A DNA stretch of 24,586 nt from a virus (Duplodnaviria > Heunggongvirae > Uroviricota > Caudoviricetes), in the IMG/VR virus record IMGVR_UViG_2698536454_000001, positions 1-24,586 of that record. One strand, 5' to 3'. The notes beneath the pieces were generated by a model. It saw nothing but the letters and a program-made list of their open reading frames with translations. It was not told where the DNA came from and did no database searches. A program made the position numbers and the translations under genes. Each line of letters opens with the position of its first letter. Within the stretch, counting starts at the first letter, position 1. This document shows positions 1,321-21,719 of this stretch, one piece after another.

Positions 1321-1325
1321 ATACT

Positions 1326-3549: not shown

Positions 3550-3553
3550 GGTG

Positions 3554-3925: not shown

Positions 3926-3936
3926 AATCTCACCTT

Positions 3937-3960: not shown

Positions 3961-4123
3961 GAACTGGAAGCAATGAGTTATGCCTTCCGTGGCTGTACGG
4001 GTTTACAGCATGAAGTCATCGCAATGGCGTCCTGCTGTAAAAAGGGCGGTGATAGTCCTTCAAGGGAAACCATCACCGCCAAGCACCTGGAACTTCTGGC
4101 ATCACGGTCCTTAGGCGTGATTC

Positions 4124-4200: not shown

Positions 4201-4627
4201 AACGCTGAGAGCACTTAGCCTGTTAAGGCACCACACTTTGTCGCGGCTCCATAAATGCTCTCATCGTTGTACCCTCGTCTCTTCCGAGGCGTCACACCGA
4301 ATCGCCGGGATGGTGAATCCCCGTGCGCGGAATAAAACCGCTCGACTTGCACATTCCGGCTACCTGGTTCGTTTGCCCGAGCAAGGGAGGGTGCCCCTTA
4401 AACGTATCCAGACCGCTATCGGCGCATGTGCCATACGCCGTACTGCTCAAAATAAAAGCTCACTCCACCTGTTCAATTTAACGACAAGCCAGTCAGGTTA
4501 GTAACCGGAATGAGCTCTTTGGTTACCTGAAAGGTAATAATTTGTGCGTTAAATGTCAACTATCTACGATAAATAAATCATATGTGGTTAAATTGGTAAT
4601 AATTTAATTGCGTACGGAGTCATTGAT

Positions 4628-4834
4628 ATGTGCATGGGTAGCTCACCATCAGTGCCTGCAACACCAGAAGTTCAGGCAGCACCACAGGAGCAGGATGCCG
4701 CCGTTGTTGATGCCCGCGACGAAGAAACACGTCGCCGTCGCGCTGCTGCTGGTCGTAGTTCTACGCTGCTTACCGGTTCTCAGGGCGACACATCAACCGC
4801 TAATACCAGCGGTAAAACGCTGCTTGGTCAGTAA
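4628..4834 (+). CDS. small Ala/Arg-rich protein (68 aa), first gene of the morphogenesis operon
   Basis: ATG 4628 follows GGAG; its initiation region CGGAGTCATTGA is duplicated before the portal start. Low-complexity sequence. Confidence 0.45.
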   Translation: MCMGSSPSVPATPEVQAAPQEQDAAVVDARDEETRRRRAAAGRSSTLLTGSQGDTSTANTSGKTLLGQ

Positions 4835-4848
4835 CCGGAGTCATTGAA

Positions 4849-6528: not shown

Positions 6529-6821
6529 CAGATTACGAAGACGATCAACTGAAAGAAGAAAACGCCCGTAAGCAACGTGACATGGCGCAGCGTGAAATTG
6601 ATGACATTCGCTTTGTCATGAGCAGTGAACAGGGGCGTCGCGTTGTCTGGTCTGTGCTGGAGAAAGGCCGGGTGTTTTCCGCTATCTCTCCGATGGACGC
6701 TATGGCAATGGCATTTAATGAGGGGCAACGCAATCTGGCGCTGGAACTGTTTCAGCGCGTTATGGCGCATTGCCCTGAACAGTATTTGAAGATGGCCAAA
6801 GAGGCCAGTGAACAGGAGTGA
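6525..6821 (+). CDS. hypothetical head-assembly-region protein (98 aa)
   Basis: ATGA overlap with the portal stop; GGTGGG RBS; lies between portal and scaffold. Confidence 0.6.
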   Translation: MTDYEDDQLKEENARKQRDMAQREIDDIRFVMSSEQGRRVVWSVLEKGRVFSAISPMDAMAMAFNEGQRNLALELFQRVMAHCPEQYLKMAKEASEQE

Positions 6822-6823
6822 TC

Positions 6824-7519
6824 ATGAATTTATTTGAGCGTTTGCTGTATCGCCGTCTTTGCAATGAGCAACCAGTCGATGGTGGAGCAGCTCCGGCTGC
6901 GTCAGAACCGTCAGCGCCTGCAGGTGATAACCCTGCTCCAGTTGGTGATCCATCACAACAGGAAGGTGATAAGCCACAACCTGTTGCTGATGGCGATAAA
7001 CCTGCTGATGACAAAAAGCCTGAAAACGATAAGCAGGATGAAAAAAAGGACGGCGATAAACCAGAGGGGGCGCCTGAGAAGTACGAGTTTCAGGCTGCCG
7101 AAGGCGTAGAGCTGGATACAGAAGCGTTGAAGGAATTCGAGCCGGTGGCGCGAGAACTTAACCTGACCAACGAACAAGCGCAAAAGCTGGTTGATGCTTA
7201 TCCGAAGATTCTGGCAGGTGTTCAGCAGCGCCAGGCAGAAGCCTGGCAGAAAACAACCGAGCAGTGGGCTGCGGATGTAAAAGCTGACAAAGAAATCGGT
7301 GGCGACAAGTTGATTTCTAACCTTAGCGCCGCACAGCGTGCGCTTGACCAGTTCGGGACACCTGAACTCAAAGAATATCTGAACACCACCGGGCTGGGTA
7401 ATCACCCTGATCTGGTCAAGACGTTCGTGAAAATCGGAAAGGCGATGTCTGAAGATGGCATGGTCACCGGTGGTAATGAAGGCCAGCGTAGTGCGGCCGA
7501 AGTGCTCTATGGCAAATAA
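6824..7519 (+). CDS. capsid scaffolding protein (putative)
   Basis: Track ORF 6818..7519; ATG 6824 follows AGGAG. Acidic, Pro/Lys-rich N-terminal region, predicted helical C-terminus, positioned immediately before the major capsid gene. Confidence 0.6.
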   Translation: MNLFERLLYRRLCNEQPVDGGAAPAASEPSAPAGDNPAPVGDPSQQEGDKPQPVADGDKPADDKKPENDKQDEKKDGDKPEGAPEKYEFQAAEGVELDTEALKEFEPVARELNLTNEQAQKLVDAYPKILAGVQQRQAEAWQKTTEQWAADVKADKEIGGDKLISNLSAAQRALDQFGTPELKEYLNTTGLGNHPDLVKTFVKIGKAMSEDGMVTGGNEGQRSAAEVLYGK

Positions 7520-7533
7520 GAGAGGAAATGACA

Positions 7534-8520
7534 ATGGCTGTTAAAGGCTTAACTGCGCTAACGCTGGCTGACTGGGGTAAGCGCGTCGATCCAAACGGGA
7601 AAGTCGATAAGATTATCGAGCTTCTCGGTCAAACTAACCCGATCCTTCAGGATATGCCTTTTGTCGAAGGGAACCTTCCTACCGGACACCGAACCACCAT
7701 TCGTTCTGGTTTACCTTCAGCCACCTGGCGTTTGCTGAACTATGGCGTACAGCCAAGCAAATCAACCACAGTGCAGGTCACCGATTCCGTTGGCATGCTG
7801 GAAACCTATGCGGAAGTCGATAAGTCACTGGCTGATCTGAACGGCAATACCGCCGAATTCCGCCTGTCTGAAGACCGCGCATTTATTGAAGCGATGAATC
7901 AGCAGATGGCGCAGACTCTGTTTTATGGTGATTCCAGCGTTAACCCTCAGCAGTTTATGGGACTGTCCTCCCGCTATTCCAGCCTGTCTGCGGGTAATGC
8001 TCAGAACATCATTGATGCTGGTGGCACGGGTACAGATAACACCTCAATCTGGTTAGTGGTGTGGGGAGAAAACACCGTGCATGGCATCTTCCCGAAAGGG
8101 CAGAAGGCTGGAATCCAGATGGAAGATAAAGGCCAGGTGACACTGGAAGATGCTGATGGCGGCAAGTACGAAGGCTATCGCACCCATTACAAATGGGATA
8201 ACGGACTTGCTCTGCGTGACTGGCGTTATGTTGTTCGCATTGCAAACATCGATGTCAGCAATCTTTCAGAACCTTCCTCTGCCGCAAATATTGCGAAGTT
8301 GATGGTTAAAGCACTGCATCGCATTCCAAACCGTGGCATGGGTCGCCCGGTGTTCTACATGAACCGCACTGTAGGCCAGGCTCTTGATCTGCAGTCTCTG
8401 GAGAAAACATCTCTGGCGATTAGCGTAAAAGAGACTGAAGGCGAGTGGTGGACTTCATTCCGTGGTGTACCAATCCGTGAAACTGATGCGCTTCTGGAAA
8501 CAGAAGCCCGCGTGGTGTAA
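7534..8520 (+). CDS. major capsid protein (putative)
   Basis: Track ORF 7528..8520; ATG 7534 has GAGGAA 6 nt upstream. About 330 aa in the canonical position after the scaffold; followed by a stem-loop. Confidence 0.7.
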   Translation: MAVKGLTALTLADWGKRVDPNGKVDKIIELLGQTNPILQDMPFVEGNLPTGHRTTIRSGLPSATWRLLNYGVQPSKSTTVQVTDSVGMLETYAEVDKSLADLNGNTAEFRLSEDRAFIEAMNQQMAQTLFYGDSSVNPQQFMGLSSRYSSLSAGNAQNIIDAGGTGTDNTSIWLVVWGENTVHGIFPKGQKAGIQMEDKGQVTLEDADGGKYEGYRTHYKWDNGLALRDWRYVVRIANIDVSNLSEPSSAANIAKLMVKALHRIPNRGMGRPVFYMNRTVGQALDLQSLEKTSLAISVKETEGEWWTSFRGVPIRETDALLETEARVV

Positions 8521-8536
8521 CGCCTGTTATTAACCT

Positions 8537-8556
8537 GTGGGTCGTAACAGACCCAC
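8537..8556 (+). other. intergenic stem-loop after the capsid gene (no U-run)
   Basis: GTGGGTC-gtaaca-GACCCAC; could be an mRNA-stability or processing element rather than a terminator. Confidence 0.4.
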
Positions 8557-8571
8557 TAATGGAGAAAGAAG

Positions 8572-9009
8572 ATGATCACCGACAAACTGTTGATGTTCTC
8601 CGAAGCTCAGGCGGTTACGAATACCGCGGCTTCTACTGACGTAATCGATCTCGGTCCAATTGACGGAAAACGTCGTGATATCGGCGTGGGTTACCCGCTT
8701 GAGTTTTGGGCGCTGGTTAACACAGCCGCCGCAGCAAGCGGTGATGCAACTGTAAACATCCAGTTGCAGACGAGTGAGGATAACAGCTCATGGACCACTA
8801 TTTATGATAGTGGTGCACTGGCAAAGACCGCCCTGACAGCAGGTAAACGAGTTGTTTCTGCAAAGGTGCCTGCCGGTGTTCAGCGATATCTGCGTGTTAA
8901 CTACTCCGTCGCAACTGGCCCACTAACGGCTGGCGAATTCACTGCGGGTATCAGTCTTGATGTTGATGCCAATACGCCGTATCCGATCCGCTCAAAAGTA
9001 ACTGGTTAA
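8572..9009 (+). CDS. virion structural protein (145 aa), possible capsid decoration protein
   Basis: GGAGAAAG RBS. Gly/Thr/Val-rich, beta-type composition. Role inferred from position only. Confidence 0.55.
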   Translation: MITDKLLMFSEAQAVTNTAASTDVIDLGPIDGKRRDIGVGYPLEFWALVNTAAAASGDATVNIQLQTSEDNSSWTTIYDSGALAKTALTAGKRVVSAKVPAGVQRYLRVNYSVATGPLTAGEFTAGISLDVDANTPYPIRSKVTG

Positions 9010-9019
9010 GGTGATATCG

Positions 9020-9355
9020 ATGTCAGGTGAGAAACCAAGATACCGCGTTCTGCGCCTCTCTCATATCCATAACACTCTGTGGCCGGAGGGGGCAGAAATA
9101 GAATACGAAGGTGAGCCTGGTAGCGCACTGGAACCTGTTAACGATGCAGCCAGACAGGCAAAAGCAAAAGTTGCAGGAAAGGTGTCAATGGCAGCAACCA
9201 GCACCAAAATCATCAACGATGTGTCAGATGATGGTGAACTGGATAAGCTCCGTGAAGAGTACGAATTGCTCTTTAACGAGAAGCCACACCATAACGCCAA
9301 AGCCGAAACGCTCCGCGAGAAGATCGCAGATAAGCGTAAAGAACTGGGCGTGTAA
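9020..9355 (+). CDS. hypothetical virion-module protein (111 aa)
   Basis: Track ORF 9011..9355; ATG 9020 follows AAGGTGA. Charged, helical C-terminal half. Confidence 0.55.
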   Translation: MSGEKPRYRVLRLSHIHNTLWPEGAEIEYEGEPGSALEPVNDAARQAKAKVAGKVSMAATSTKIINDVSDDGELDKLREEYELLFNEKPHHNAKAETLREKIADKRKELGV

Positions 9356-9373
9356 GCCTCGCGAATCAGACAA

Positions 9374-9393
9374 GGGGCTTCGGCCCCTTTATT
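9374..9393 (+). terminator. intrinsic terminator
   Basis: GGGGC-ttcg-GCCCC hairpin followed by TTTATT. Confidence 0.65.
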
Positions 9394-9405
9394 GCAGGAG
9401 TGTAT

Positions 9406-9729
9406 ATGGAACTCGTAAACCTCAAAACCGGCACTGACAGCTACCAGGATGAGAGCGGAGAAACCAGAACTCGCGATGAATACGCGTGGGGGCTGTGCAT
9501 CACTCTTAATAACGACACATTGAATAAGCTGAAGGCGCAACCTCAGGGCGTCGGAACAGAAGTGATGATAACTGCAAAGGCTGTTATTCGAGGCCTGTCT
9601 GCCAGAGAAACTGACGATGGTGTTAATCGCAGCGCCGATCTGCAGATCACTGATATGGCAATCGCTCCTGTTTCCGGTGATGTAGAAAAATCAGCGGCTG
9701 AAACTCTGTACGGCAATGGGGGTGAGTAA
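9406..9729 (+). CDS. hypothetical virion-module protein (107 aa)
   Basis: Track ORF 9400..9729; ATG 9406 follows GCAGGAG. C-terminus SAAETLYG resembles the scaffold C-terminus SAAEVLYGK. Confidence 0.55.
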   Translation: MELVNLKTGTDSYQDESGETRTRDEYAWGLCITLNNDTLNKLKAQPQGVGTEVMITAKAVIRGLSARETDDGVNRSADLQITDMAIAPVSGDVEKSAAETLYGNGGE

Positions 9730-10334
9730 TGGCCTCTGTAGTAGAGATCTGCAATCGTGCGCTGTCCAATATTGGCAACAGCCGCAGCATTAACAGCCTG
9801 ACGGAAGCCAGCAAGGAAGCGGGGGAATGTTCGCTGCACTTTGAGGCCTGCCGTGATGCTGTGCTTTCTGATTTTGACTGGAACTTTGCTACCAAACGCG
9901 TGGCGCTTGCAGATACGAGCAATCCACCGCCTGACTGGGAATATGCGTACCAGTACCCGTCCGATTGTCTGCGCATTACTGAAATTATGCTTCCTGGTGT
10001 ACGCAATCCAACAGCAGCAATGCGCGTTCAGTACGAAGTTGGTGCAGACACCAACGGAACAGGAAAGTTGATCTACACAGACCAGCCGCAGGCATGGCTC
10101 AAGTATGTATCTCGCGTTTCAGATGTGAACATGTTTGATGCCATTTTTATGGAGGCGTTGGCCTGGCGTCTTGCGGCAGCTATTAACATGGCGCTGACTG
10201 GGAATGCAGACCTCGGTACGTTTGCCCTCAATATGTACAATCGCGTGATTCTTAGTGCTGGCTCGCATAGCCAGAATGAATCACAGGAACCACAGCCACC
10301 GGTTGACGAGTTTACCATTGCGAGGTTGTCCTGA
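9729..10334 (+). CDS. tail tubular protein A / adaptor (T7 gp11-like)
   Basis: 201 aa. N-terminus (VEICNRALSNIGNSRSINSLTE) matches the pattern I recall for T7 gp11 (VNDILASIGEPPVSTLEG); size and position fit. Confidence 0.65.
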   Translation: MASVVEICNRALSNIGNSRSINSLTEASKEAGECSLHFEACRDAVLSDFDWNFATKRVALADTSNPPPDWEYAYQYPSDCLRITEIMLPGVRNPTAAMRVQYEVGADTNGTGKLIYTDQPQAWLKYVSRVSDVNMFDAIFMEALAWRLAAAINMALTGNADLGTFALNMYNRVILSAGSHSQNESQEPQPPVDEFTIARLS

Positions 10335-12805
10335 TGGCTATCAGTTGGATCCAGCCCAGCTTTGCCGGTGGTGAGATTGGACCGTCGTTGTACGGTCGTA
10401 TCGACATGGCGAAGTACCAGGTGGCATTGCGCAAGTGCGATAACTTTATCGTGCGGCAGTATGGCGGCGTTGAGAATCGACCTGGTACGCGTTTTGTCGG
10501 TGCCGCCAAATACCCAAATCGGAAATGCCGCCTGATCCCGTTCCAGTTCTCGACTGTTCAGACCTATGTTCTGGAGTTCGGACACCAGTACATGCGCGTT
10601 ATCAAAGATGGTGCGTTGGTGCTGAACAGCAGCAATGTTATTTATGAAATTGCCACGCCATATACTGAAGCCGATCTGTTCCGAATTAAATTCACGCAAA
10701 GCGCCGACGTGCTTACGCTGGTTCACCCGGCATACCCGCCGAAAGAGTTGCGCCGCTATGCGCATGACAACTGGCAACTGGTTGATGTGGTAACGAAGAA
10801 CGGGCCATTTGAAGATATCAATATTGACGAGTCAGTGACGGTTTATGCCAGCGACAGCACCGGGACAATTACGTTAACGGCAAGCGCCTCTATTTTTGGC
10901 GCCGAGCAGGTAGGCAAATTGTTCTATCTGGAACAGCCTGCAGTGGATTCAGTGCCGGTATGGGAAACCAGTAAGAGTACGTCGATTGGCGATATTCGCC
11001 GTGCAGACAGTAACTACTATCGCGCCGTTACAGCAGGCAAAACAGGCACTTTGCGCCCTTCGCATACAGAAGGAACATCATGGGATGGCTGGGGCGGATC
11101 CGGTGATGATGATACTGGCATTGAGTGGGAGTATCTGCACAGTGGTTTTGGCATTGCCCGTATCTCTGCTGCAAATGGAACTACTGCAACTGCTGAGGTG
11201 ATTTCCTATATCCCTTCGCAGGTAGTTGGCGAGGATAATGCCAGCTATAAATGGGCTAAATATGCCTGGAATAGTGTTAACGGTTATCCTGGCACTGTTG
11301 TTTATTATCAACAACGTCTTTACTTCGCCGCATCGACTGCGTTCCCTCAGACTATCTGGGCCAGCCGTACTGGGGATTATAAGGATTTTGGCAAAAGCAA
11401 TCCTACGCAGGATGACGACAGAATTATCTACACCTATGCCGGGCGTCAGGTTAATGAGATCCGCCACCTGATTGATGTTGGTTCGCTGGTGGCGCTGACT
11501 TCCGGAGGTGAGTACGTCATCACCGGCGACCAGAACAAAGTATTAACCCCATCATCATTTGCATTCAGCTCTCAGGGATCAAATGGCTCGAGCAATGTCC
11601 CACCAATTGCCGTGGCGAATATTGCTCTGTTCGTCCAGGAGAAAGGCAGTGTTGTCCGTGATCTGGCCTACTCATTCGATGTTGACGGCTATCAGGGGAA
11701 CGACCTAACCATCCTTGCCAATCATCTTTTTCAGAAGCACAGCATTGTTGACTGGTGCTTCTCTATTGTCCCTTACTCCAGCGCCTTCTGCATTCGTGAT
11801 GACGGTAAATTACTGGTGATGACCTATTTGCGTGATCAGCAGGTTTTTGCATGGGCACCACAGTCCAGTACCGGAAAATATGAAAGTACATGCAGTATCA
11901 GCGAAAGCAATGAAGATGCGGTGTATTTCGTCGTTAACCGAACCGTTAACGGGCAAACAGTGAGATACATCGAGCGACTGTCAAGCCGTTTATTTACCAG
12001 CGATGAAGATGCTTTCTTTGTTGATTCTGGCCTTAGCTATGATGGAAGAAATACGTCTGACAGAACGATGACCATCACTGGTGGTTCTGGCGAATGGGAT
12101 TACCGCGCGGAATATACAATCAGTGTTTCTGGTGGTGCGTACTTCACCAGTAGTGATGTCGGTGCGCAACTACAGTTCCCTTATACCGTAACCGATCCTG
12201 ATACTGGCGATGAAGTGTCAAAAAAATTACGTTGCGACATTATTTCTGTAACCAGCAATACTGCTGTAGTGGTTCGTGCTAACAGGAACGTCCCGACATC
12301 CCTCAGGGATGTGGGCACCACGAACTGGCAGATGGCGCGCCGGACATTTGGAGGCCTGTCTCATCTTGAAGGACAGACCGTAAACATTCTCTCTGATGCT
12401 AATGTGGAGCCACAGAAAGTGGTTTCCGGAGGTGCCGTCACGCTGGAATCACCTGGGGCTGTAGTGCACATCGGCCTGCCAATAACTGCTGAATTCGAAA
12501 CACTGGATATCAACATTAACGGACAGGAAACGCTGCTGGACAAAAAACAGGTGATCCCGTCCGTTACTCTGGTTGTGAATGCCAGCCGCGGCATCTGGGC
12601 GACTACGCCCGGCGGTAAATGGTACGAATATCCACAGCGTGAATTCGAGTTCTACGATGATCCTGTTGATGACGCTACCGGAAAAGTAGAAGTGAAACTG
12701 GACAGTAACTGGGGCAAAAACGGACGTGTAAGAATCCGTCAGCTTGACCCGTTGCCGCTGTCTGTTCTTGCCGTTATTCCTCGCCTTACTGTTGGGGGGT
12801 TCTGA
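10334..12805 (+). CDS. tail tubular protein B / nozzle (T7 gp12-like)
   Basis: 823 aa, start coupled to the gp11-like stop (TGATG). Size and position fit gp12; no motif verified. Confidence 0.6.
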   Translation: MAISWIQPSFAGGEIGPSLYGRIDMAKYQVALRKCDNFIVRQYGGVENRPGTRFVGAAKYPNRKCRLIPFQFSTVQTYVLEFGHQYMRVIKDGALVLNSSNVIYEIATPYTEADLFRIKFTQSADVLTLVHPAYPPKELRRYAHDNWQLVDVVTKNGPFEDINIDESVTVYASDSTGTITLTASASIFGAEQVGKLFYLEQPAVDSVPVWETSKSTSIGDIRRADSNYYRAVTAGKTGTLRPSHTEGTSWDGWGGSGDDDTGIEWEYLHSGFGIARISAANGTTATAEVISYIPSQVVGEDNASYKWAKYAWNSVNGYPGTVVYYQQRLYFAASTAFPQTIWASRTGDYKDFGKSNPTQDDDRIIYTYAGRQVNEIRHLIDVGSLVALTSGGEYVITGDQNKVLTPSSFAFSSQGSNGSSNVPPIAVANIALFVQEKGSVVRDLAYSFDVDGYQGNDLTILANHLFQKHSIVDWCFSIVPYSSAFCIRDDGKLLVMTYLRDQQVFAWAPQSSTGKYESTCSISESNEDAVYFVVNRTVNGQTVRYIERLSSRLFTSDEDAFFVDSGLSYDGRNTSDRTMTITGGSGEWDYRAEYTISVSGGAYFTSSDVGAQLQFPYTVTDPDTGDEVSKKLRCDIISVTSNTAVVVRANRNVPTSLRDVGTTNWQMARRTFGGLSHLEGQTVNILSDANVEPQKVVSGGAVTLESPGAVVHIGLPITAEFETLDININGQETLLDKKQVIPSVTLVVNASRGIWATTPGGKWYEYPQREFEFYDDPVDDATGKVEVKLDSNWGKNGRVRIRQLDPLPLSVLAVIPRLTVGGF

Positions 12806-13269
12806 TGATCGACGTTCAAATTATTCCCTCTACCGAAGAGCATCTTCAGATGATTTTGCCGGATGTTCGTCAGGCTGATATTGACGAACTGTATGCGGTA
12901 TCGCTGATGACTACCGAAGATGCGCTGCGTGTTGGTCTTCGCACTGCGACTATGGCCTGGTCAGGATTTGCGAACGGAGAACTGGTAACCATGTTTGGCG
13001 TATCTCCGGCGTCAATGATCGGTGGCAATGGTACGCCATGGCTGGTAGGAACCAGCCGTATTGAAAAATATCAGAAGACATTTCTTCGCCACTGCCGCCC
13101 TGTATTGCAGCAGATGCTGGCAGTTTATCCGCGCCTGGAAAACTACGTCGACGAGCGAAACCATGTTGCCAAATCATGGCTGCACTGGCTTGGATTCAGG
13201 CTTGAAGAAGCCGCGCCTTATGGTGCTCTTGGTCTTAATTTCCACAGATTTCACATGGAGAGAAAATAA
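12805..13269 (+). CDS. hypothetical virion protein (154 aa), possibly gp13-like
   Basis: Translationally coupled between the gp12-like and gp14-like genes. Confidence 0.5.
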   Translation: MIDVQIIPSTEEHLQMILPDVRQADIDELYAVSLMTTEDALRVGLRTATMAWSGFANGELVTMFGVSPASMIGGNGTPWLVGTSRIEKYQKTFLRHCRPVLQQMLAVYPRLENYVDERNHVAKSWLHWLGFRLEEAAPYGALGLNFHRFHMERK

Positions 13270-13847
13270 TGTGTAACCCAGCCATCGCTTTGGTTGCCGT
13301 CACAGTGGCATCCACAGCCGCGTCAATGTACAGCCAGAGCAAGCAGGCAAAATACCAGTCAGCCATAGCTGATCGGAATGCTGAAATTGCTGAAGCTCAG
13401 GCACAGGATTCAATCAATCGTGGGAATATTGAAGCGGATCAGCGTCGTCGTGAAATGCGTCAACGCTCAGGTACTGCGGCGGCCACTATGGGGGCTACCG
13501 GTGCGGAATTAAGTAGCGGAACAGCTCTTGACGTTTTTGCGGATAATGCTCAGTTCGGCACTCTTGATGCGTTAACGACAGTGAATAATGCTCAGCGTGA
13601 GGCATATGGGTATCAGGTTCAGGGAATGAATGCTCAGGCACAGGGGGCTGCTGCTCAGTCGGCTGCTAAATCATCGATGACCAGCACTTTGTTAACGGCA
13701 CCACTAAAAGCATACGGTGCGTACCAGATGTTTGGTGGGACGTGGAGTCCGTTCTCTAAAGGAAGTACATCTAGTGGTGGGACGCCAATGTTATCTAACT
13801 CAGGTTTTATGAATTCTGACTCCCGATTCAAAATAGGAGGTTACTGA
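13269..13847 (+). CDS. internal virion / ejection protein (T7 gp14-like)
   Basis: 192 aa. N-terminus MCNPAIALVAVTVASTAAS parallels T7 gp14 (MCWAAAIPIAISGAQAISG); Ala/Gln-rich; position before two very large genes. Confidence 0.65.
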   Translation: MCNPAIALVAVTVASTAASMYSQSKQAKYQSAIADRNAEIAEAQAQDSINRGNIEADQRRREMRQRSGTAAATMGATGAELSSGTALDVFADNAQFGTLDALTTVNNAQREAYGYQVQGMNAQAQGAAAQSAAKSSMTSTLLTAPLKAYGAYQMFGGTWSPFSKGSTSSGGTPMLSNSGFMNSDSRFKIGGY

Positions 13848-16594
13848 TGCCTGTTGTTCCTACTACATCCGGACGCCAGGTGCAAAGTCGTGGTGTGCAA
13901 ACCGGTGGTTTTCAGACCTTCGATGTTCCTCAAGCAGGTCAGGTGCTGGCGAATGTCGCAGATCAGTATGCGGTGGCATATGGTGAAGCCAGGCAGAAAG
14001 CGAATGTTGCTATGGCTCAGGAGGCGTTACTGCAATTTAACCAATTTGCAGATGACCAGATTAACAGCCCTGAAAATGGGCTGATTTCTAAACAGGGTAA
14101 AAACGCTCTTGGTCAGAGTGACGCTGTTATGAAAAATATGCAGGAAAGGGCTCAGGCATTATTAGGCTCAATTCCTGAAAGTGAGGAAAGGAATAAATTA
14201 TCCTTTCAACTCCAGCAGTCTATGCAGTCTTATTACAATCAGGCACGTCGATATGAAGTTGGGCAGTTTCAGCAATTCCAAGATCAAACGTATTTGTCAG
14301 GAAATGCATTGGCTGTCACTCAGTCTGCGGGGCTATATAGCGATAACCAAGCATTTGTCGATTTAGCCAAGCAGCGATTTGAATCTATTGATCAATACGC
14401 TGATGCGCATGGGCTTCCTGATGAGTGGCGTGTTCAGCAGAAAACTCAGCTCAAGGAACAAATGGGGCAGCAAGCATGGATAGGAAATATCGCTCAAAAA
14501 TACAACGAGTTTCTTCAGGTTAATGGAGAGCCAGGGGATCTTGATGGTGTGAGTCGTGCAATATCACATGGTAATTCATTGGATGCTCGTGGTTTACGTA
14601 ATAATAACCCTGGTAATATTGAAGCGAGCAAATCTAACCCGTGGGAAGGTCAGATCGGTAGCGATGGACGTTTTGCAACGTTTGCTACCCCTGAGCATGG
14701 AATCCGCGCGTTGGGTAAAAATATGTTGTCTTACCAGCGTCAAGGCTATGATACCGTTAGCGAGATTGTTAATCGCTATGCTCCGGCTAGTGATGGTAAT
14801 AATACTGATGCTTATATTAGGGCATTGTGTGGTGAGCTTGGTGTTGGGGAGAATGATCAGCTTGATATCTCTAACCCAAAGACACTAGCTGCTTTATGTG
14901 CTGGGATTATTAAACACGAAAATGGCAGTATGCCTTATAGCACCGAACAGCTTGAAACTGGTATCTCGGCAGCCCTTGGTCTAACTAACCTTGATTCACC
15001 TAAGCGTTATACGGGCAATGCGGCATTTGACGCTATGAGCCCTCAAATGCAAATACAGGCATTGAGGCAGGCTAATGAGCTGAGAAATCAGTACCGCCAG
15101 CAGTATGCGGACCAGCTTAGCACCGTAGTTAAAGATGCATATTCAGCCCTTGATGAAGGATTGAAACCTGAGAAGTTACCTTCTGAGGACGATTTTATCC
15201 GGGCCAATGGTCCGCGCATTGGCGCTATGAAGTGGAAGGATATGCAGGCGCAGATACAATATGGAGGTGTCATTGGTGCCGCTAAAGACCTCACTCCAGA
15301 AGGACGACAAGACATTCTTGAACGTTTACGTCCACAGGATCCAAACGCTCCTGGATTTGCAGCTAACCAGCAACGCTGGGAGAAAATGCAGGCTAAATTT
15401 AAAGAGATGGATAGGGAGTGGGAGATTCAGCAGGGAAGAAACAGGTTCGTGTCTTCAATGCAAAATAACTTCCCGCTGGACCCGAACGACAAAAACAATC
15501 AGGCAGCGGTAGACCGTTATTTCGCGCAGGATATCGCGCCTTCGTTTTCCATATCTGATCCGCAGAGCATCAATACACTGGTCACCGTCACAACTAAAAG
15601 CGGCATGATACCAACTCAGGTTAAAACAATGCTTAACAGTGGAGCAACATCAAGAGATCCTGCGCTGGTTGTCCCGATGGCAAAATTCTACGGTCAGTTA
15701 TTCGATAATAATCCGGCAGCAGCGGCAACACTTGATAAAAGTACGATGGCATTTTACGGCAAGGTTTACGATTATTCCCGCGCTGGCGTGCCGGAGGATA
15801 AGGCTGTTGATATGGCTTACAGCCAGGTGTTCCAACAGGATGACCGAATGAAACAGATGCTTTCCACTGCCATGCGAGACAAAAAATATGTCGCGGCGAG
15901 GGCAACTGCTGCACAAAATAACGCCAGCAGTCTGACTTCCTTTGGTTCGTGGTCTCCGGATATTACCGATCCAGGAAAATCAAATGCGGCCTATCAGCGA
16001 GATTACCAGACAATTTACGATGCTAACTTTGTACAGACAGGTGGCGATGCAGAACAGGCTGAGAAAATGACCAATGCCATGATCAGAACCACCTGGGGAG
16101 TTTCTACGGTTAATGGCAAAGCAGAGGTTATGAAGTATGCACCTGAGGCATTGTACGGAGTAAATAATGGTGCTGGTAACTGGATACAGGGGCAGTGGGA
16201 GCAGGAAAAACGCGAGCTTAAATCAAAATCCTTTGGCGGTCCTCGCAGTGATACGGACTTAATACTTGTTTCTGATGGCCTTACGGCAAGGGATAGGAGT
16301 TATGCTGTTATGGTTTTACAGCCTGACGCAAACGGAGCGATAGAACCGAGAAATTATATTGGAGAAAATGGTCTCCCTGTTCGTTTCAAGCCGGATCAGC
16401 TGACATCTCCAATGTACAGGCAAACCATTCAGTTCCAGCAACAGCGTGTTGATGAGGCTAGAGTGCGGAGAGAAGGCAATCCGCTGCCGCAGTTCAGCAA
16501 TAAAGATGGATATACTCCTCCAGATCTGACCAAACCATTCGGTTATGGTTCAGCCAATTACCTTCCGAGCAATATATACGCAGGGGGCAAATAA
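13847..16594 (+). CDS. internal virion / ejection protein (gp15-like, 915 aa)
   Basis: AGGAGG RBS. Large Gln-rich protein in the gp15 position. Carries a conserved-looking block RGLRNNNPGNIEASKSNPWEGQ...FATFATPEHGIRALGKNMLSY. Confidence 0.65.
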   Translation: MPVVPTTSGRQVQSRGVQTGGFQTFDVPQAGQVLANVADQYAVAYGEARQKANVAMAQEALLQFNQFADDQINSPENGLISKQGKNALGQSDAVMKNMQERAQALLGSIPESEERNKLSFQLQQSMQSYYNQARRYEVGQFQQFQDQTYLSGNALAVTQSAGLYSDNQAFVDLAKQRFESIDQYADAHGLPDEWRVQQKTQLKEQMGQQAWIGNIAQKYNEFLQVNGEPGDLDGVSRAISHGNSLDARGLRNNNPGNIEASKSNPWEGQIGSDGRFATFATPEHGIRALGKNMLSYQRQGYDTVSEIVNRYAPASDGNNTDAYIRALCGELGVGENDQLDISNPKTLAALCAGIIKHENGSMPYSTEQLETGISAALGLTNLDSPKRYTGNAAFDAMSPQMQIQALRQANELRNQYRQQYADQLSTVVKDAYSALDEGLKPEKLPSEDDFIRANGPRIGAMKWKDMQAQIQYGGVIGAAKDLTPEGRQDILERLRPQDPNAPGFAANQQRWEKMQAKFKEMDREWEIQQGRNRFVSSMQNNFPLDPNDKNNQAAVDRYFAQDIAPSFSISDPQSINTLVTVTTKSGMIPTQVKTMLNSGATSRDPALVVPMAKFYGQLFDNNPAAAATLDKSTMAFYGKVYDYSRAGVPEDKAVDMAYSQVFQQDDRMKQMLSTAMRDKKYVAARATAAQNNASSLTSFGSWSPDITDPGKSNAAYQRDYQTIYDANFVQTGGDAEQAEKMTNAMIRTTWGVSTVNGKAEVMKYAPEALYGVNNGAGNWIQGQWEQEKRELKSKSFGGPRSDTDLILVSDGLTARDRSYAVMVLQPDANGAIEPRNYIGENGLPVRFKPDQLTSPMYRQTIQFQQQRVDEARVRREGNPLPQFSNKDGYTPPDLTKPFGYGSANYLPSNIYAGGK

Positions 16595-19500
16595 TGCCGA
16601 TATATGAACAGGATCCTAAAGAGTTGCTTGGCGAGGATATTCAGCAAATAGCAGCACCTGATGACAGTAATTTCTATATGGAAACACCTTCTTTGCTTTC
16701 TGCTGTGAACCCATTTACCAGTGATCAACGCGTTCAAAGGTCTAGACAAGCAGCATTTCGTATAGATAACACGCTGGGTAGCTTTATTGCCAGTGCTCCT
16801 TTCAGTCAGTTTGACAGGGTTGAAGGATATAACCCATTTGATAACGATGCAGCAGATATTAAAGGCTATGAAGATTTTGCAGATTCGTTTATCAACTCCG
16901 GTTCGCATGAAGAAACAATGGCAATTAAACATCGAATCGATAAGCAAAGAACAGATAGAGAATATCTATCTGAAATGGGGGGTGCTGGTACTATTTCAAG
17001 CTTAGCAATGGGAATGATAGACCCGGTTAATGTGGCTGCAATGTTCATCCCTGTAGGGGCGGTAGCGCGTGGAGGAAGTATTGCTGAGACGGCAGGGCGT
17101 TTTGCCCTGGCGAATGCTGCTGGTGGGGGAGTATCAGAAGCCGCATTACAGGCCACTCAGGAAGCTCGCTCACCGATGGAGAGCGTATCGAACGTTGTTG
17201 TTGATGCTCTCGTTGGTGGGATCCTTGGTGCTGGTGCACAGCTACTTGCTGGACCTAGCGCGCGCGAGGCAGTGGTTAACTCAGTAGGTAATCATTTGCG
17301 AGGTATGGATTCTCCTCAAAGCATTGGTGCAGCTCAGGTTTTCAATACCACACTCGATCAGGAACAGCTCGCTGGACTTGGACTTGCTAACAAAACGTTG
17401 AGTGTCACTCCTGCTGGCCGCTTGGCGCAATCACCATCTCTTGTCTCCCGTCAGATTAACCAGCAGCTTGCCGAAAATAACTATTTCTTCGCCAAAAATG
17501 ATGAGGGGTTGGCTACGTTTACGGCAGTCGAGACTAAGATTAAGCAATACGACGCCATGCTTTATAAGCAGATGGAAGCCACTCGTGATGCTTACCAGCA
17601 GTACAGCAAATCTGTTAGCGCCCGCGGCGTGAAGAGGATGAACTTTATTGATTTCAATGAAGCTGTTGGCATGGCTATGCGCCGTGGTGATCAGAGTGAT
17701 ATTCCTGAGGTTTCACAAGCAGCCGCCAGAATCCGCCCCATTTTCGAGACCACAAAAGCCCGTATGCAGGAACTGGGGATCCTTCCTGAGGATATCGATG
17801 TCGTGACGGCGAAAAGTTATCTTCCCCGCATTTATAAGTTCGATAAGATACTTTCCGACCGCACTGAATTCAGAGGGCGAATTGCCAACTGGATACAAGG
17901 GATTAGTGCCAAAGGTGCTGACAAAGCAGGTCAGCGAATTGAAAGGATAAATTCATTGCTAAAAACTGCAGAGGAATCGGCACCGCGCGCTGATGCTCTC
18001 GCTAGTGAAATCGCTGAAGCGGAGAAATGGTCTGGTAAAAAAATTCTACTCATGGAAGAACTGGATAAACGAAATAAGCTTATATCTCAGGAGACTGACA
18101 CACAGGCGCGTCTTACAAGAATAGAAAAAGAGTTGGCCGAGACTTCATCAGAAAAACTTCAGGCAAGAATGATGAAAGAAAGCTCTGACCTTAAAACACG
18201 CCTTGATGATATAGCGCAGGCAAAGAGTGAGCTTCCTGTCTATCAGCGTCATATGGAGTTGCTGGATAATCCACGGAAATATCGTTCTGAGCTTCGCCGA
18301 CTGCAAAAACGGGCAAATTCAACCACAAGGCTGAATGCAAGCCGCGAACGAGCACTGAAGCAGATGGAGCCTCTATCCCGAGAGGAAGCAGAGGACGCTG
18401 CTGACGAGATCGTGAATAAAATAATAGGCGCACCTTCCGGTCTTGTACCAGCCGATATTATCCCAGAGAGACTCGTTGGTCGGGCTGGTTTCACTAAAAG
18501 CAGAACGCTGCTTATTCCTGATGAGCGTATAGAAGATTTTCTTGAATCAGATGTTAACTACATCATGGAAAGTTATCTCCGGCAGGTGGCACCAGAAATT
18601 GAGCTGACTGCGCAGTTTGGCCGTAAAGATATGGGGGAGCAAATCCGTCAGGTTAGTGAGGAATATACCCGGCTAATAAAAGAGGCTAAAACACCTAAAC
18701 GACGTGCAGTTCTTGAGAAGCAACGGGAGGCTGATATTAGGGATATTACGGCTATGCGTGATCGACTGCTTGGTACTTACGGCGCACCTCAAGATCCACG
18801 CAGTTTCTTTGTTCGTGCCGGGCGAGTTGCTAGGAATATTAACTTCCTCCGTTTGCTTGGTGGAATGACTGTCTCCGCTGCAACTGATCTGATGCGACCG
18901 ATGATGCAGCATGGCCTGAGAAAATCTCTCGGACCAATGGTAAGCATGCTTAAAAATATGGACTCAGTGAAAATTGCAACCAGGGATTTGCGAGAAATGG
19001 CCGTTGGGCTTGATTATGTCCTGTCTACGCGTACAAAGGCTATAGCGGATCTTACTGACCCCTATAGCCGGAGAAGCGCCGCTGAGCGAGGTCTGAACTG
19101 GATGACGCAGAAATTCGGTAACTGGACGCTGATGAATCAGTGGAACAGCGCACTTAAATCATGGTCCGGGATGATAGTGCAGTCGAGGATACTTGACGCG
19201 GCTCGCCAAGTTTCTGCTGGTGGCACGCTCTCCAAAAGTGAAATGCGGAAGATGGCACAGGTCGGCATCAATGAAGATGTTCTGCGCCGAATTGGGGAGC
19301 AATTCGGGAAGCACGGAGAGGATATGGACGGGCTGTTAACCGGGCATAGTCATCTGTGGGATGACCGTTTCGCTAGAGAGATTTTCCAGTCTGCAGTGCT
19401 GAAAGATGTAGACTCAGTGATTGTAACGCCTGGCGTAGGTGATACACCGCTGTTTTTTAGTAAAGAAGGCTGGAAGATGATCACGCAGTTCAAAACGTTT

Positions 19501-19983
19501 ATCTTCGCACAGCATAACAGGGTGCTGGTATCTGGTATCCAGCAGGGCGATGCTGCATTCTATCTTGGCGCGCTTGGCACGATTGCACTTGGCTCAATGG
19601 TCTATATGATGAAACAGAAGTTAAGCGGTCGCGATATCGACTACAGCTGGAATAACCTTGTGAAAGAGGGGATCGACCGGGGCGGAATGCTTGGCTGGCT
19701 CTCTGAGCCGCTGAATACCGTTGAGAACATAAGCGGCGGTAGGTTTGGTCTTGGCGCGATGTTTGGTGCGCCTCCGGTATCAAGGTTTCAGAGTCGTAAT
19801 GCTATTGGTGCTTTACTTGGTCCTACCTTTGATCTTGGCGGTGATGCCGCGACGGTTGCGAATGGTGTACTTAACGGAGAATTTGACAGCCAGCAAACCC
19901 ACGCGGTCCGTAAAATGCTACCTTTTCAGAACCTGTGGGCGATATCACCGTTACTAAATAAAGTTGAAGAGCAGATGAAATAG
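16594..19983 (+). CDS. internal virion / ejection protein (gp16-like, 1129 aa)
   Basis: Start overlaps the upstream stop (TAATG). Largest gene, last of the operon, Gly/Ala-rich segments. Confidence 0.65.
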   Translation: MPIYEQDPKELLGEDIQQIAAPDDSNFYMETPSLLSAVNPFTSDQRVQRSRQAAFRIDNTLGSFIASAPFSQFDRVEGYNPFDNDAADIKGYEDFADSFINSGSHEETMAIKHRIDKQRTDREYLSEMGGAGTISSLAMGMIDPVNVAAMFIPVGAVARGGSIAETAGRFALANAAGGGVSEAALQATQEARSPMESVSNVVVDALVGGILGAGAQLLAGPSAREAVVNSVGNHLRGMDSPQSIGAAQVFNTTLDQEQLAGLGLANKTLSVTPAGRLAQSPSLVSRQINQQLAENNYFFAKNDEGLATFTAVETKIKQYDAMLYKQMEATRDAYQQYSKSVSARGVKRMNFIDFNEAVGMAMRRGDQSDIPEVSQAAARIRPIFETTKARMQELGILPEDIDVVTAKSYLPRIYKFDKILSDRTEFRGRIANWIQGISAKGADKAGQRIERINSLLKTAEESAPRADALASEIAEAEKWSGKKILLMEELDKRNKLISQETDTQARLTRIEKELAETSSEKLQARMMKESSDLKTRLDDIAQAKSELPVYQRHMELLDNPRKYRSELRRLQKRANSTTRLNASRERALKQMEPLSREEAEDAADEIVNKIIGAPSGLVPADIIPERLVGRAGFTKSRTLLIPDERIEDFLESDVNYIMESYLRQVAPEIELTAQFGRKDMGEQIRQVSEEYTRLIKEAKTPKRRAVLEKQREADIRDITAMRDRLLGTYGAPQDPRSFFVRAGRVARNINFLRLLGGMTVSAATDLMRPMMQHGLRKSLGPMVSMLKNMDSVKIATRDLREMAVGLDYVLSTRTKAIADLTDPYSRRSAAERGLNWMTQKFGNWTLMNQWNSALKSWSGMIVQSRILDAARQVSAGGTLSKSEMRKMAQVGINEDVLRRIGEQFGKHGEDMDGLLTGHSHLWDDRFAREIFQSAVLKDVDSVIVTPGVGDTPLFFSKEGWKMITQFKTFIFAQHNRVLVSGIQQGDAAFYLGALGTIALGSMVYMMKQKLSGRDIDYSWNNLVKEGIDRGGMLGWLSEPLNTVENISGGRFGLGAMFGAPPVSRFQSRNAIGALLGPTFDLGGDAATVANGVLNGEFDSQQTHAVRKMLPFQNLWAISPLLNKVEEQMK

Positions 19984-20424: not shown

Positions 20425-20436
20425 TAGGTGACCTTT

Positions 20437-20886
20437 ATGTTCAAGAAGATGATCAACAGATTAATCGGTGGTAAGGAGGTTAGCAATAAAATTCAACCTC
20501 TTATCTTTAAGGATAACTTTTCAGCTTTTGAGTATGCGTGTAAGTATCTTGACACAAGCCTTTCAGCCAATAAACCAATGCCAGCCATCATCATACCTGG
20601 CCCCAGTGGGGAACAGCCAGTTTTGCTAGATTCTGGAAGACAAAGGGCAATGCTGAAGGTGTGCTCAGCTGATGGTGGATTTTTTGTTATTGCCGATTCA
20701 TCTTACAGCAAAGGACCAAAGCTGAGGATTGGTGATCTTGTTGCTTGGTTGCCTGTGAGTTATGCCGAAGAATTAACGGATAAAATAGAAGATCCTCGCT
20801 CCGCTATGGTTGGCTTGATATTGGGAACCATTCATCCTGAACTAACATCTACTGGCTGGAAGGGTAAAGAAAGATTTCGCAAGTAG
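20437..20886 (+). CDS. soluble protein of unknown function (150 aa)
   Basis: Track ORF 20428..20886; ATG 20437 follows AGGTGA. AT-rich. Divergent from the secreted-protein gene with starts only about 12 bp apart. Confidence 0.6.
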   Translation: MFKKMINRLIGGKEVSNKIQPLIFKDNFSAFEYACKYLDTSLSANKPMPAIIIPGPSGEQPVLLDSGRQRAMLKVCSADGGFFVIADSSYSKGPKLRIGDLVAWLPVSYAEELTDKIEDPRSAMVGLILGTIHPELTSTGWKGKERFRK

Positions 20887-20887: not shown

Positions 20888-20899
20888 GTGACATGTCAC
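20888..20899. repeat. palindrome GTGACATGTCAC, copy 3 (between the stop of 20437..20886 and a terminator)
   Basis: Perfect 12-bp palindrome 1 nt after TAG and 1 nt before the terminator hairpin. Confidence 0.9.
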
Positions 20900-20900
20900 A

Positions 20901-20925
20901 GGCCGCTTTCGCGGCCTTGTTTTTA
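20901..20925 (+). terminator. intrinsic terminator
   Basis: GGCCGC-tttc-GCGGCC hairpin followed by TTGTTTTT. Confidence 0.7.
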
Positions 20926-21084
20926 ACGAATGCCGCCGCCGCCCGGGCGGGAATCCGCAGAACGCCCACCGCAGCGGGAGCCGTCAGCGGCAGTATCGCT
21001 GTCGTGCTGACAACGGCCGGCAAAGGCCTGAGTTGAAGCTACCAGAGACAACAAAACGAACAGTGCAGCAAATGCTTTTTTCAT
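20923..21084 (-). CDS. possible small secreted peptide (53 aa)
   Basis: Inside track ORF 20923..21111. ATG 21084 gives MKKAFAALFVLLSLVASTQAFA (signal-like) plus a Gly/Arg/Asp-rich 31-aa tail with two Cys. Weak RBS; GC-rich island in an AT-rich block. Confidence 0.3.
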   Translation of the reverse strand: MKKAFAALFVLLSLVASTQAFAGRCQHDSDTAADGSRCGGRSADSRPGGGGIR

Positions 21085-21157
21085 TGTGAAAAATTTCCAT
21101 CTATAAGCCACCTCAATGTGGCGTCAATGAGTGTAGCACTGACTTTTGTTTCGTCCA

Positions 21158-21178
21158 CAAAAAAGCCCGCAGCGCAGG
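21158..21178 (-). terminator. intrinsic terminator right after the stop of 21180..21719
   Basis: GCCUGC-gcu-GCGGGC hairpin (one G-U pair) followed by six U on the minus strand. Confidence 0.6.
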
Positions 21179-21179
21179 C

Positions 21180-21719
21180 TTACCAAAACTTGTACCACGG
21201 GGATTTATCCTTCAATGGACAATCCTTCCATCGTGTGGCCAACCATTCATATTCTTTAAAATATGTGTTTATGTTTTCTTTTTCTCTAATGGCTTGTATA
21301 AGAGGTAGCGCAATCTGATAGTTATTTACAACGGAGCTGTAAAATACTTCCTTAATCATGGTCTCATCATAAGTTTTCCGCTTCACGCTCACAGCCATGC
21401 GTTCGTAGAAACCTAGACAGTAAATTATTTCTCTCTTCTCTGTCTTTTCTTCATCCGTAAGATCAGCCTGCCCATTGCTTGGATACATATAAGAGCGGAA
21501 TGATTTGTTCGATTCGTGAATGCGGCGCATAGTAGATAGGCCTTTCTTATAATCTACATCAAACCTGCTTTCACCAAGGAATACTGAAGTGTGTACTTTT
21601 CTCGCTGTATTTACATTATAAATAATAGTAGCGATAGCTATGAACAAGCCAAGCGAAACCGCGACTGCACTTACGATTTGAGCCACAGCCATGGCAAATT
21701 GCATTTCTTCACTTAACAC
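21180..21719 (-). CDS. membrane-anchored protein of unknown function (179 aa)
   Basis: GTG 21719 follows GGAGA (alternative ATG 21704). One N-terminal transmembrane helix (AMAVAQIVSAVAVSLGLFIAIATIIY), then a charged soluble domain; AT-rich. Confidence 0.6.
   Translation of the reverse strand: MLSEEMQFAMAVAQIVSAVAVSLGLFIAIATIIYNVNTARKVHTSVFLGESRFDVDYKKGLSTMRRIHESNKSFRSYMYPSNGQADLTDEEKTEKREIIYCLGFYERMAVSVKRKTYDETMIKEVFYSSVVNNYQIALPLIQAIREKENINTYFKEYEWLATRWKDCPLKDKSPWYKFW

Follow-up and report, generated by a model that had tools for sequence, protein, structure and literature searches.

IMG/VR record IMGVR_UViG_2698536454_000001 (positions 1 to 24,586; these 24,586 nucleotides (nt) are hereafter the window) is an Escherichia coli prophage of the phiV10/TL-2011b type (genus Uetakevirus), with 96-97% DNA identity over most of its length to Escherichia phages EC.W1-9, TL-2011b, phiv142-3, HEMP4 and phiV10. 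Positions 1..19983 hold a plus-strand virion operon, after which comes a cargo region of low guanine-plus-cytosine (GC) content. Our subject is a small-peptide gene on the minus strand of this variable region, which has the virion-protein operon on one side and the antirepressor and tailspike genes on the other. Its open reading frame (ORF, 21084..20923) starts with the ATG at 21084 and specifies a 53-codon precursor, in which the predicted signal peptide MKKAFAALFVLLSLVASTQAFA is followed by the predicted mature peptide GRCQHDSDTAADGSRCGGRSADSRPGGGGIR (Table 1).

Coding evidence and the predicted peptide

Neither a 53-codon ORF nor the 5-bp repeat that precedes it is remarkable by itself, and both gain significance only because they are conserved in relatives. 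Among 17 gammaproteobacterial copies, column entropy at codon positions 1, 2 and 3 is 0.29, 0.21 and 1.26, the third position being about five times more variable, and the proportion of synonymous differences (pS) reaches 0.71, near saturation, versus 0.10 for nonsynonymous ones (pN). Pairwise ratios of nonsynonymous to synonymous rates (dN/dS), where calculable, are 0.03-0.19 in gammaproteobacterial, alphaproteobacterial and Devosia pairs (0.03-0.13 within Gammaproteobacteria), and the protein motif is retained in other phyla at 49-60% DNA identity. Judged by this substitution pattern, the ORF is a translated gene under strong purifying selection, and the protein is selected, not the RNA: with pS near saturation, there is no RNA-level constraint over the coding sequence. 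An alternative start, GTG at 21111 (62 residues), was rejected because all relatives begin at the MKK methionine.

A preliminary description of the locus, made from the letters alone, had hesitated between a peptide and a small RNA. The peptide holds up, since strong purifying selection has kept its frame in copies as far from E. coli as those of Rhizobiales and cyanobacteria. That the locus is instead a small regulatory RNA, non-coding or dual-function, with an incidental or secondary ORF, is highly improbable. The unit is indeed short (about 240 nt) and lies between a promoter-like region and a hairpin, the leader contains conserved non-coding blocks, and the predicted transcript folds somewhat better than shuffled sequences (z = -2.0, with 4 of 200 shuffles as good). 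However, (i) within the coding sequence, third positions approach saturation and the amino acids hardly vary, (ii) the protein motif survives at the low DNA identities given above and the signal-peptide grammar is maintained, (iii) an RNA-only function would not keep the frame and the Cys spacing across Proteobacteria and cyanobacteria and, (iv) Rfam 15 returned only a sub-threshold match to rli43 that lies outside the unit (21213-21291; 17.7 bits versus 100).

A GC-rich island inside an AT-rich cassette had also been described, and composition bears this out: the interval 20923-21157 has 53.6% GC, the ORF 59% and the mature-peptide codons 72%, versus 37-39% in the flanking cargo genes, and the cargo genes within 19984-20886 and 21180-21719 are very AT-rich (32-39% GC). 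GC at codon positions 1, 2 and 3 is 0.74, 0.77 and 0.65, and any codon choice for this peptide, with its Gly, Arg, Ala, Asp and Pro, yields 45-84% GC. The island is thus largely an outcome of the encoded amino acids, because GC peaks at the first two codon positions and the composition of the peptide forces that range.

The precursor opens with an N-terminal KK, a 13-residue hydrophobic core and A-F-A ahead of a predicted signal peptidase I site, followed by Gly23. Among 130 stand-alone family members, a hydrophobic core is found in 127, an N-terminal Lys or Arg in 120, a small residue at -1 in 117 and a small or aliphatic one at -3 in 126; the predicted mature length is 28 residues in 90 of them and 31 in 26. 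The signal-peptide sequence drifts across the family while the mature part is conserved, with a core that reads C-x4-D-x-A-x-D-G-S-R-C-G-x-R-[SA]-A-x2-R-P-G-G (in the window, C25...C38-G-G-R...R46-P-G-G). A signal-peptide-like N-terminus and a short tail with two Cys had been noticed before, and both are seen here, the tail being 31 residues long and rich in Gly, Arg, Asp and Ser. From these features we infer that the precursor is exported by Sec and cleaved after A-F-A.

A different fate is implied by 'transmembrane anchored protein', the name that NCBI and submitters use for the family: an uncleaved N-terminal helix would hold the product in the inner membrane, with its Cys loop displayed in the periplasm, in the manner of MgrB-type small membrane regulators. 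Many longer relatives do tether the same domain beside a real transmembrane helix, and membrane proximity may matter. Nevertheless, the hydrophobic core is short (about 13 residues), the canonical A-x-A site followed by Gly is kept in about 90% of stand-alone members while the leader drifts, which is typical of cleaved signal peptides, and the name, for which no paper was found, seems to have been assigned automatically. We consider such an anchored product unlikely and the NCBI label probably misleading.

Three other product classes were rejected. A lipoprotein would need a lipobox, [LVI][ASTVI][GAS]C, which is missing here since F-A-G-R precedes Cys25 and places an Arg at -1 (across the family, the residue just before the first Cys is Asn in 54%, Pro in 15% and Arg in 10%). 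A microcin or bacteriocin was discarded because the leader is a Sec signal peptide and not a double-glycine one, and because exporter and immunity genes are lacking. As for an arbitrium-like signalling peptide, a 3-kDa peptide is unlikely to pass the outer membrane, and no receptor gene lies nearby.

The peptide matches phrog_14503 over residues 1-53 of 53 (E 2.3e-40; PHROG category moron, auxiliary metabolic gene and host takeover) and phrog_3117 (E 4e-36), and phmmer matches bearing the NCBI name reach E 2e-26. A 100% identical protein is annotated in TL-2011b (AEW24557.1, 'putative transmembrane anchored protein'), and the gene is also an annotated coding sequence in Klebsiella phages BUCT711 and ST512-KPC3phi13.3 and in phiv142-3 (Orf11, QGF19617.1). 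Within Uetakevirus genomes it occupies the same position. Pfam and NCBIfam scans of the peptide gave no meaningful match, the family being without a model, and 65 members scanned against Pfam at E <= 10 yielded nothing beyond signal-peptide noise (PepSY_2, Neurokinin_B, YbgS and the like). A literature search by the family's database name and core motif found no paper on the family, and the gene goes unmentioned in the Uetakevirus papers PMC10408124 and PMC9782041. The peptide is already catalogued (PHROG, an NCBI name, GenBank coding sequences), and its family is without a described Pfam, PDB or literature entry.

Homology searches, a check that the preliminary description had suggested for the mature peptide, found the reading frame conserved in relatives across phyla. 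Enteric homologues occur in E. coli, Shigella, Klebsiella, Citrobacter, Cronobacter, Salmonella, Pectobacterium and Dickeya, with CQHDSDTAADGSRCGGRSADSRPGG nearly invariant. A scan of one genome per species gave 57 loci, including non-enteric ones of Rhizobiales, cyanobacteria, Vibrio, Bacteriovorax and a myxobacterium, and all have the same ungapped 25-residue core. Across phyla, this core was counted in 59 loci. When 1.84 billion representatives (50% identity) were searched by profile, 356 clusters emerged at E <= 1e-3, and a word-indexed search gave 742 clusters at 90% identity, many of which carry NCBI's family name, including those of Devosia, Mesorhizobium, Rhizobium, Agrobacterium and Methylobacterium. 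A search of 5426 complete E. coli genomes recovered DNA of the peptide gene in 537 (about 10%). On the viral side, 306 IMG/VR contigs encode a relative; three further IMG/VR scans recovered mostly the same E. coli-type loci and added about 15 new leader variants. Four copies from Mesorhizobium and Methylobacterium (L017, L018, L021 and L030) carry CQHDYDTASDGSRCGDRSADSRPGG and are closer to the enterobacterial peptide (core identity 84-88% in the two measured, L017 and L021) than to other Rhizobiales copies (CNVPSDRA...RAASERPGG). Such enteric-like alphaproteobacterial sequences speak either for a functional subfamily or for transfer between classes by phages.

Table 1. Features in and around the small-peptide gene (positions are those of the window)
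Feature	Position	Strand	Basis
Proposed -35, TGGACG (4/6 match to TTGACA, 16 nt upstream of the -10)	21152..21157	minus	conservation
Proposed -10, TACACT (TAnnnT)	21130..21135	minus	conservation in 22 distinct relatives
Stem-loop GCCAC-ATTGAG-GTGGC, predicted 0-2 nt from the 5' end of the messenger RNA (mRNA)	21107..21122	minus	covariation
Element of the preliminary description: TTGACG (21127..21122), 16-nt spacer (the hairpin), TATAGA (21105..21100)	21100..21127	minus	sequence
GGA, a weak Shine-Dalgarno-like element 11 nt upstream of the ATG; leader A/U-rich	21096..21098	minus	sequence
Predicted Sec-type signal peptide MKKAFAALFVLLSLVASTQAFA, codons 1-22	21019..21084	minus	sequence features and family survey
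Predicted mature 31-residue peptide GRCQHDSDTAADGSRCGGRSADSRPGGGGIR, codons 23-53	20926..21018	minus	alignments, selection analysis
Cys25 and Cys38 codons (C-x12-C)	21012..21010 and 20973..20971	minus	translation
Stop codon TAA	20923..20925	minus	ORF translation
G+C-rich hairpin AGGCCGC-GAAA-GCGGCCT, 5 nt past the stop, common to the gene and the convergent plus-strand gene 20428..20886	20900..20917	both	
12-bp perfect palindrome GTGACATGTCAC, adjoining the terminator; end of the conserved ~300-bp block	20888..20899	both	sequence, relatives
Intrinsic terminator hairpin of the upstream DUF4760 gene, then T-run TTTTGTGGAC	21163..21181	minus	8-bp stem, 5 GC pairs
DUF4760 membrane protein (phrog_2284), upstream neighbour	21719..21180	minus	Pfam/PHROG match
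152-residue protein (phrog_9944), convergent with the peptide gene	20428..20886	plus	PHROG match
146-residue exported protein with signal peptide and several Cys (phrog_8772)	in 19984-20886	minus	ORF list, PHROG match
Bro-N/ANT antirepressor ORF	21929-22768	minus	Bro-N and phrog_130 matches

Promoter and leader hairpin

Alignment of the 5' regions comprised 97 distinct leader sequences, with a subset of 22 distinct enterobacterial ones. The leader has a constant order: a -35-like hexamer, a TAnnnT hexamer, a 4-8-bp stem-loop, a CTACACAYGG block, a purine-rich GGA or AAGGA and the ATG. Among the 22 relatives, TAnnnT occurs as TACACT, TACAAT, TAAACT, TAAAAT, TATGAT or TACGCT, with A2 and T6 invariant and T1 conserved at 90% or more, figures that carry a selection caveat since the sequences were cut by eye to start at this hexamer and the register was chosen by hand. 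In all lineages it stands 6-8 nt upstream of the leader hairpin, and 16-17 nt further upstream all enterobacterial lineages have a -35-like hexamer, in relatives TGGATG, TGGATA or TTGCCA (general form TGGAYG or TTGCCA). On this conservation, transcription most likely starts at about 21122-21124 from a weak sigma-70-type promoter, which would give a leader of about 40 nt. At the position of the Shine-Dalgarno-like element, relatives carry GGA, GGU or AAGGA, 6-12 nt before the ATG.

An inverted repeat CCAC-N6-GTGG, placed by the preliminary description in a promoter spacer, is present as GCCAC-N6-GTGGC (21122..21107); its compensatory changes and the position of TAnnnT upstream of it speak against the spacer role. 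The stem occurs as GCCAC/GTGGC, GCCGC/GCGGC, CTGCT/GGCAG, GCCGTC/GATGGC and AGGCCATT/GATGGCCT. On a tool-made alignment, 85% of cells are paired and three of the five pairs show changes on both sides; the covariation score is reached by none of 500 shuffles, and slid controls are 0-61% paired. An independent RNAalifold prediction recovers the three inner pairs, each of which has compensatory changes. By this covariation the leader stem is real, as expected of a transcribed hairpin. A 5'-terminal hairpin is a known brake on 5'-end-dependent decay, and by analogy with the 5'-terminal hairpin of ompA we infer that this one may stabilise the 5' end of the mRNA.

The preliminary description had put the promoter elsewhere, at a TTGACG-16-TATAGA element followed almost directly by the start codon. 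The two hexamers exist and end 15 nt before the ATG, at 21127..21100 and not at 21095-21122 as given there. Were this element to drive the gene, the leader would be at most about 9 nt long, without a Shine-Dalgarno sequence, and the repeat in its spacer would be a protein-binding operator. Its -35 matches the consensus at five of six positions with a 16-nt spacer in the window, and the TATAGA position is conserved in the 22 relatives, so that something is selected there; the element could be an additional lineage-specific start. However, its -10 lacks the highly conserved final T both in the window and in relatives, which have TACACA at this place, and conservation of its -35 stops at the E. 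coli lineage, relatives having ATAAAG, ATGAAG, TCAAAG, CTTCAG and similar sequences. Moreover, the repeat changes in sequence and stays complementary (AU to GC, CG to UA), as expected of an RNA stem and not of a fixed operator, and distant family members have ordinary leaders with GGAGG-type sites. The element is also no more than chance would produce: it is absent from the list of a consensus scan, because its -10 has no T at position 6, and that scan found four promoter-like sites in 3 kb versus 5.4 expected, no more than in shuffles. We regard it as an improbable promoter for the gene, and the near-leaderless message proposed with it gives way to a start about 40 nt upstream, which conservation favours.

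The CTACACAYGG block (TTATAGATGG in E. coli; 21100-21106 and equivalents in L002-L218) lies between the hairpin and the ribosome-binding region. An ATG in it (21100..21098) opens an out-of-frame 38-codon ORF in the window, and is in frame in Enterobacter and Franconibacter relatives (MVSTMKK...). Several Klebsiella-type copies have ACG instead, so that conservation of the block does not extend to a start codon.

A probably autonomous unit in a variable region

The small gene is bracketed by terminators, which fits a gene with expression signals of its own, as the preliminary description had read it. The terminator of the upstream DUF4760 gene shields it from upstream transcription, and the T-tract of this terminator directly adjoins the proposed -35; an equivalent hairpin and T-run are found in TL-2011b and in Klebsiella relatives despite different upstream genes. 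On the other side, the post-stop hairpin, which has a good T-run on the plus strand only and is listed as a plus-strand terminator, is kept in most enterobacterial relatives, is followed by TTT(T) in four of them (L004, L005, L012 and L015) and is annotated as 'terminator' in phiV10. The palindrome next to it occurs three times exactly in the window (1087-1098, 3538-3549 and 20888-20899; about 0.0015 expected per window). The second and third copies each lie directly 3' of a G+C-rich terminator-like hairpin, the first and second share the longer sequence TGTGACATGTCACG(AA)GGTGTTAT, and the copy beside the small gene is kept in phiV10 and in Klebsiella, Kluyvera and Buttiauxella prophages. We take the palindrome as a candidate binding site for a regulator of these phages.

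BLAST matches to related phages span only about 20885-21183 of the window. Clustering of 135 distinct prophage loci puts the module of 118 into one main cluster, and the 400 nt on each side into 27 clusters each. The terminator and palindrome are kept in phiV10 and in O157 typing phages 9 and 10, from which the gene is absent. In phiV10 (L253, NC_007804), the last seven or so codons remain (ttaacgaatgccgcctccgcccg; 2539-2562, record 19528-19551), joined to unrelated sequence. By this comparison the remnant is a deletion scar, and the annotated 29-residue PhiV10p22 that starts at it is probably an artefact of the scar. A Methylobacterium prophage carries its homologue between tail-fibre (Collar, Peptidase_S74) and ANT genes, the same type of position as in the window. 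All-versus-all BLAST of the neighbours in the 57 genome loci found no shared family beyond enterobacterial prophage genes, and Pfam found no family in more than two loci among 130 neighbours of the non-enteric loci; the lack of a conserved neighbour outside prophages argues that the gene works without a dedicated partner.

By these comparisons the ~300-bp minus-strand unit behaves as a moron: it is probably autonomous, present or absent, variably flanked and of distinct base composition (in part forced by the peptide). Known morons, or lysogenic-conversion cassettes beside tail genes (lambda bor and lom, HK97-type; Juhala et al. 2000; PMC3594210), are likewise small independent units with a promoter-like region and a terminator, with a base composition unlike that of their neighbours, a presence that varies among near-identical phages and an exported product. 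However, the moron products Bor, Lom and Cor have 100-200 residues and known phenotypes and are either lipoproteins or proteins of the outer membrane, whereas the peptide is a predicted soluble Cys-loop of about 31 residues, and the Cys-loop domain is also common outside phages.

Among the neighbours, the antirepressor ORF as listed begins about 50 codons upstream of the starts of its Bro-N and phrog_130 matches (residues 46-69); its N-terminal extension (MCKAHLFYGGLCGG...) is probably untranslated, a later Met (..ITMTANV..) being the likelier start. No radical-SAM maturase gene was found among the neighbours of the peptide gene (DUF4760, Bro-N and uncharacterised proteins). In phiv142-3, transcription of the genes was measured by quantitative reverse-transcription PCR in serum versus lysogeny broth, and this carrier prophage is known to change host fitness through cargo genes beside the peptide gene (PMC7724020), which makes the region a biologically active one.

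The Cys-loop domain and a possible function

The signature C-x12-C-[GSA]-x-R is present in 199 of 203 family proteins, about half of which are stand-alone precursors of about 50 residues. Longer forms carry the loop either N-terminally (signal peptide, loop, transmembrane helix and a cytoplasmic part of about 150 residues) or C-terminally, behind a transmembrane helix or a Gly/Ser linker; tandem loops also occur. Seven proteins of the first kind (P0080, P0089, P0099, P0116, P0120, P0143 and P0192) consist of signal peptide, Cys-loop, RNPDTDW, one transmembrane helix and the cytoplasmic region, which has a shared (N/G)xYD(A/V)A...Y motif and no Pfam match; this looks like a one-pass membrane protein with the loop as an external module. 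In 96 longer members, the Pfam domains found alongside the loop were SH3_3 (5), SH3_4 (4), PG_binding_1 (2) and NucA/NucB (1), a company that, as far as domain assignments go, is extracytoplasmic and cell-wall-flavoured.

In 162 unique cores, C, G, C and R are invariant; the invariant or near-invariant core residues are the two Cys, Gly10, Gly14, Arg16, Arg21 and Gly23-Gly24, with Asp5, Ala7, Asp9, Ser11 and Arg12 conserved at 68-88%. Three conserved Arg suggest an anionic ligand. A four-Cys variant, CxCPY...PxCY, makes up 18% of unique cores and suggests a second disulfide and a distinct subfamily; in its fuller form (GNCxCPY...G..CGxRSAYSRPGG..P.CY), seen in P0148 and in Bacteriovorax (L050, 3001-3102), it frequently lies C-terminal to SH3_3 domains. 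Neither the full-length nor the domain-only alignment, used as a profile against PDB sequences, gave a match at E <= 10.

One likeness that we noticed is to Excalibur (PF05901), whose calcium-binding motif, DxDxDGxxCE, we take to resemble the peptide core. Both domains are short, extracytoplasmic and bracketed by Cys, with an acidic D-x...D-G-x-x-C stretch, and both stand alone or are attached to secreted or cell-wall proteins including nucleases. They differ in Cys spacing (about 30 in Excalibur versus 12) and in sequence (D-x-D-x-D-G-x-x-C-E versus D-x-A-x-D-G-S-R-C-G), and PF05901 matched neither the window protein (E <= 1) nor the 65 members (E <= 10) nor the 96 long members (E <= 0.01). 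While Excalibur binds calcium, the three invariant or near-invariant Arg of the peptide argue for an anionic over a cationic ligand.

Taken together, we think it quite probable that the locus is a prophage moron encoding a Sec-exported Cys-loop peptide of about 31 residues, transcribed from the TACACT promoter with a leader hairpin. In the sequence of events that we propose, transcription would start at a weak sigma-70-type promoter, TGGACG-16-TACACT (21157..21130), just past the upstream terminator, as its conservation suggests, and the ~40-nt leader would begin with the stem-loop 21122..21107, which may protect the mRNA 5' end as discussed above. The 53-codon ORF would then be translated, as codon-level purifying selection across phyla indicates, and the precursor exported by Sec and cut after A-F-A, in keeping with the signal-peptide features of the whole family. 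A 31-residue periplasmic peptide would thereby be released, its two invariant Cys presumably joined by DsbA into a disulfide loop. The peptide would probably act alone, since there is no conserved partner gene, on a conserved envelope component. For a prophage, the likeliest benefit, itself speculative, would be a change in the envelope that protects the lysogen, for example by hindering the entry of a superinfecting phage.

Several points weigh against this interpretation. The proposed promoter matches the consensus at only 8 of 12 positions and was not listed by the consensus scan, and it does not account for the conserved TAnAnA block (T36, A37, A39 and A41, each at 90% or more in the 22 relatives, with a final A). 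The leader hairpin has only 5 bp and a weak RNAalifold energy of -0.87 kcal/mol, and the post-stop hairpin of the window lacks a minus-strand U-tract, so its efficiency is uncertain. Cleavage, disulfide and periplasmic location are predictions. An AlphaFold model of the mature peptide with 65 sequences has a predicted local distance difference test (pLDDT) score of 77 and is almost without secondary structure, and Foldseek of this model against PDB returned only noise at E > 4 (a pectin methylesterase), so that a fold match is lacking. Many family members lie outside prophages. In phiv142-3, orf6, orf10, orf24, orf40 and orf41 were deleted and orf11, the peptide gene, was left unmutated; nor is orf11 among the 14 serum-induced genes (PMC7724020). 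Lastly, hidden Markov models of PADLOC-DB 2.0 had no match to the peptide or to four neighbour proteins, leaving a defence role without direct support.

An exclusion or defence role in the prophage is accordingly a tentative proposal, possible by analogy and on the doubtful side. Two small Sec-exported periplasmic products of mobile elements, T4 Spackle and the HXS effector HxsA (PMC13128918), are of the kind predicted for the peptide; the analogy is functional only, a sequence relationship being absent. PF25676 (T4_Spackle) reached E 0.14 in one of the 65 members. An HxsA-type effector was rejected, the NF038309 (HxsA3) score being 12.9 bits versus a cutoff of 65, with a single H-x-S (HDS) and no HxS repeats.

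Going further, the loop (G-N-C-x2-P-x-D-x-A-x-D-G-S-R-C-G-x-R-[SA]-A-x2-R-P-G-G) might be an extracytoplasmic mini-domain for a universal anionic envelope component, whose free-standing form temperate phages of several bacterial classes would have recruited again and again as a gatekeeper in the periplasm. We put this forward as a long shot. If true, a candidate ligand would be a moiety of peptidoglycan or of a lipid-linked precursor, the gatekeeper would interfere with cell-wall penetration or DNA entry of competing phages, and the peptide would represent a new, very small class of prophage exclusion factor, carried by about 10% of E. coli genomes.

Few prophage products are understood as poorly as small exported proteins. 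The present one occurs in about one in ten complete E. coli genomes and in prophages of Klebsiella, Salmonella, Cronobacter, Pectobacterium and Methylobacterium, and the lack of a Pfam-type model for the Cys-loop domain exposes an annotation gap. The 25-residue core is almost unchanged between bacterial classes, implying a conserved target, and the peptide is short enough for chemical synthesis, so that its binding partners and its effects on phage entry, envelope stress and serum resistance are directly testable.

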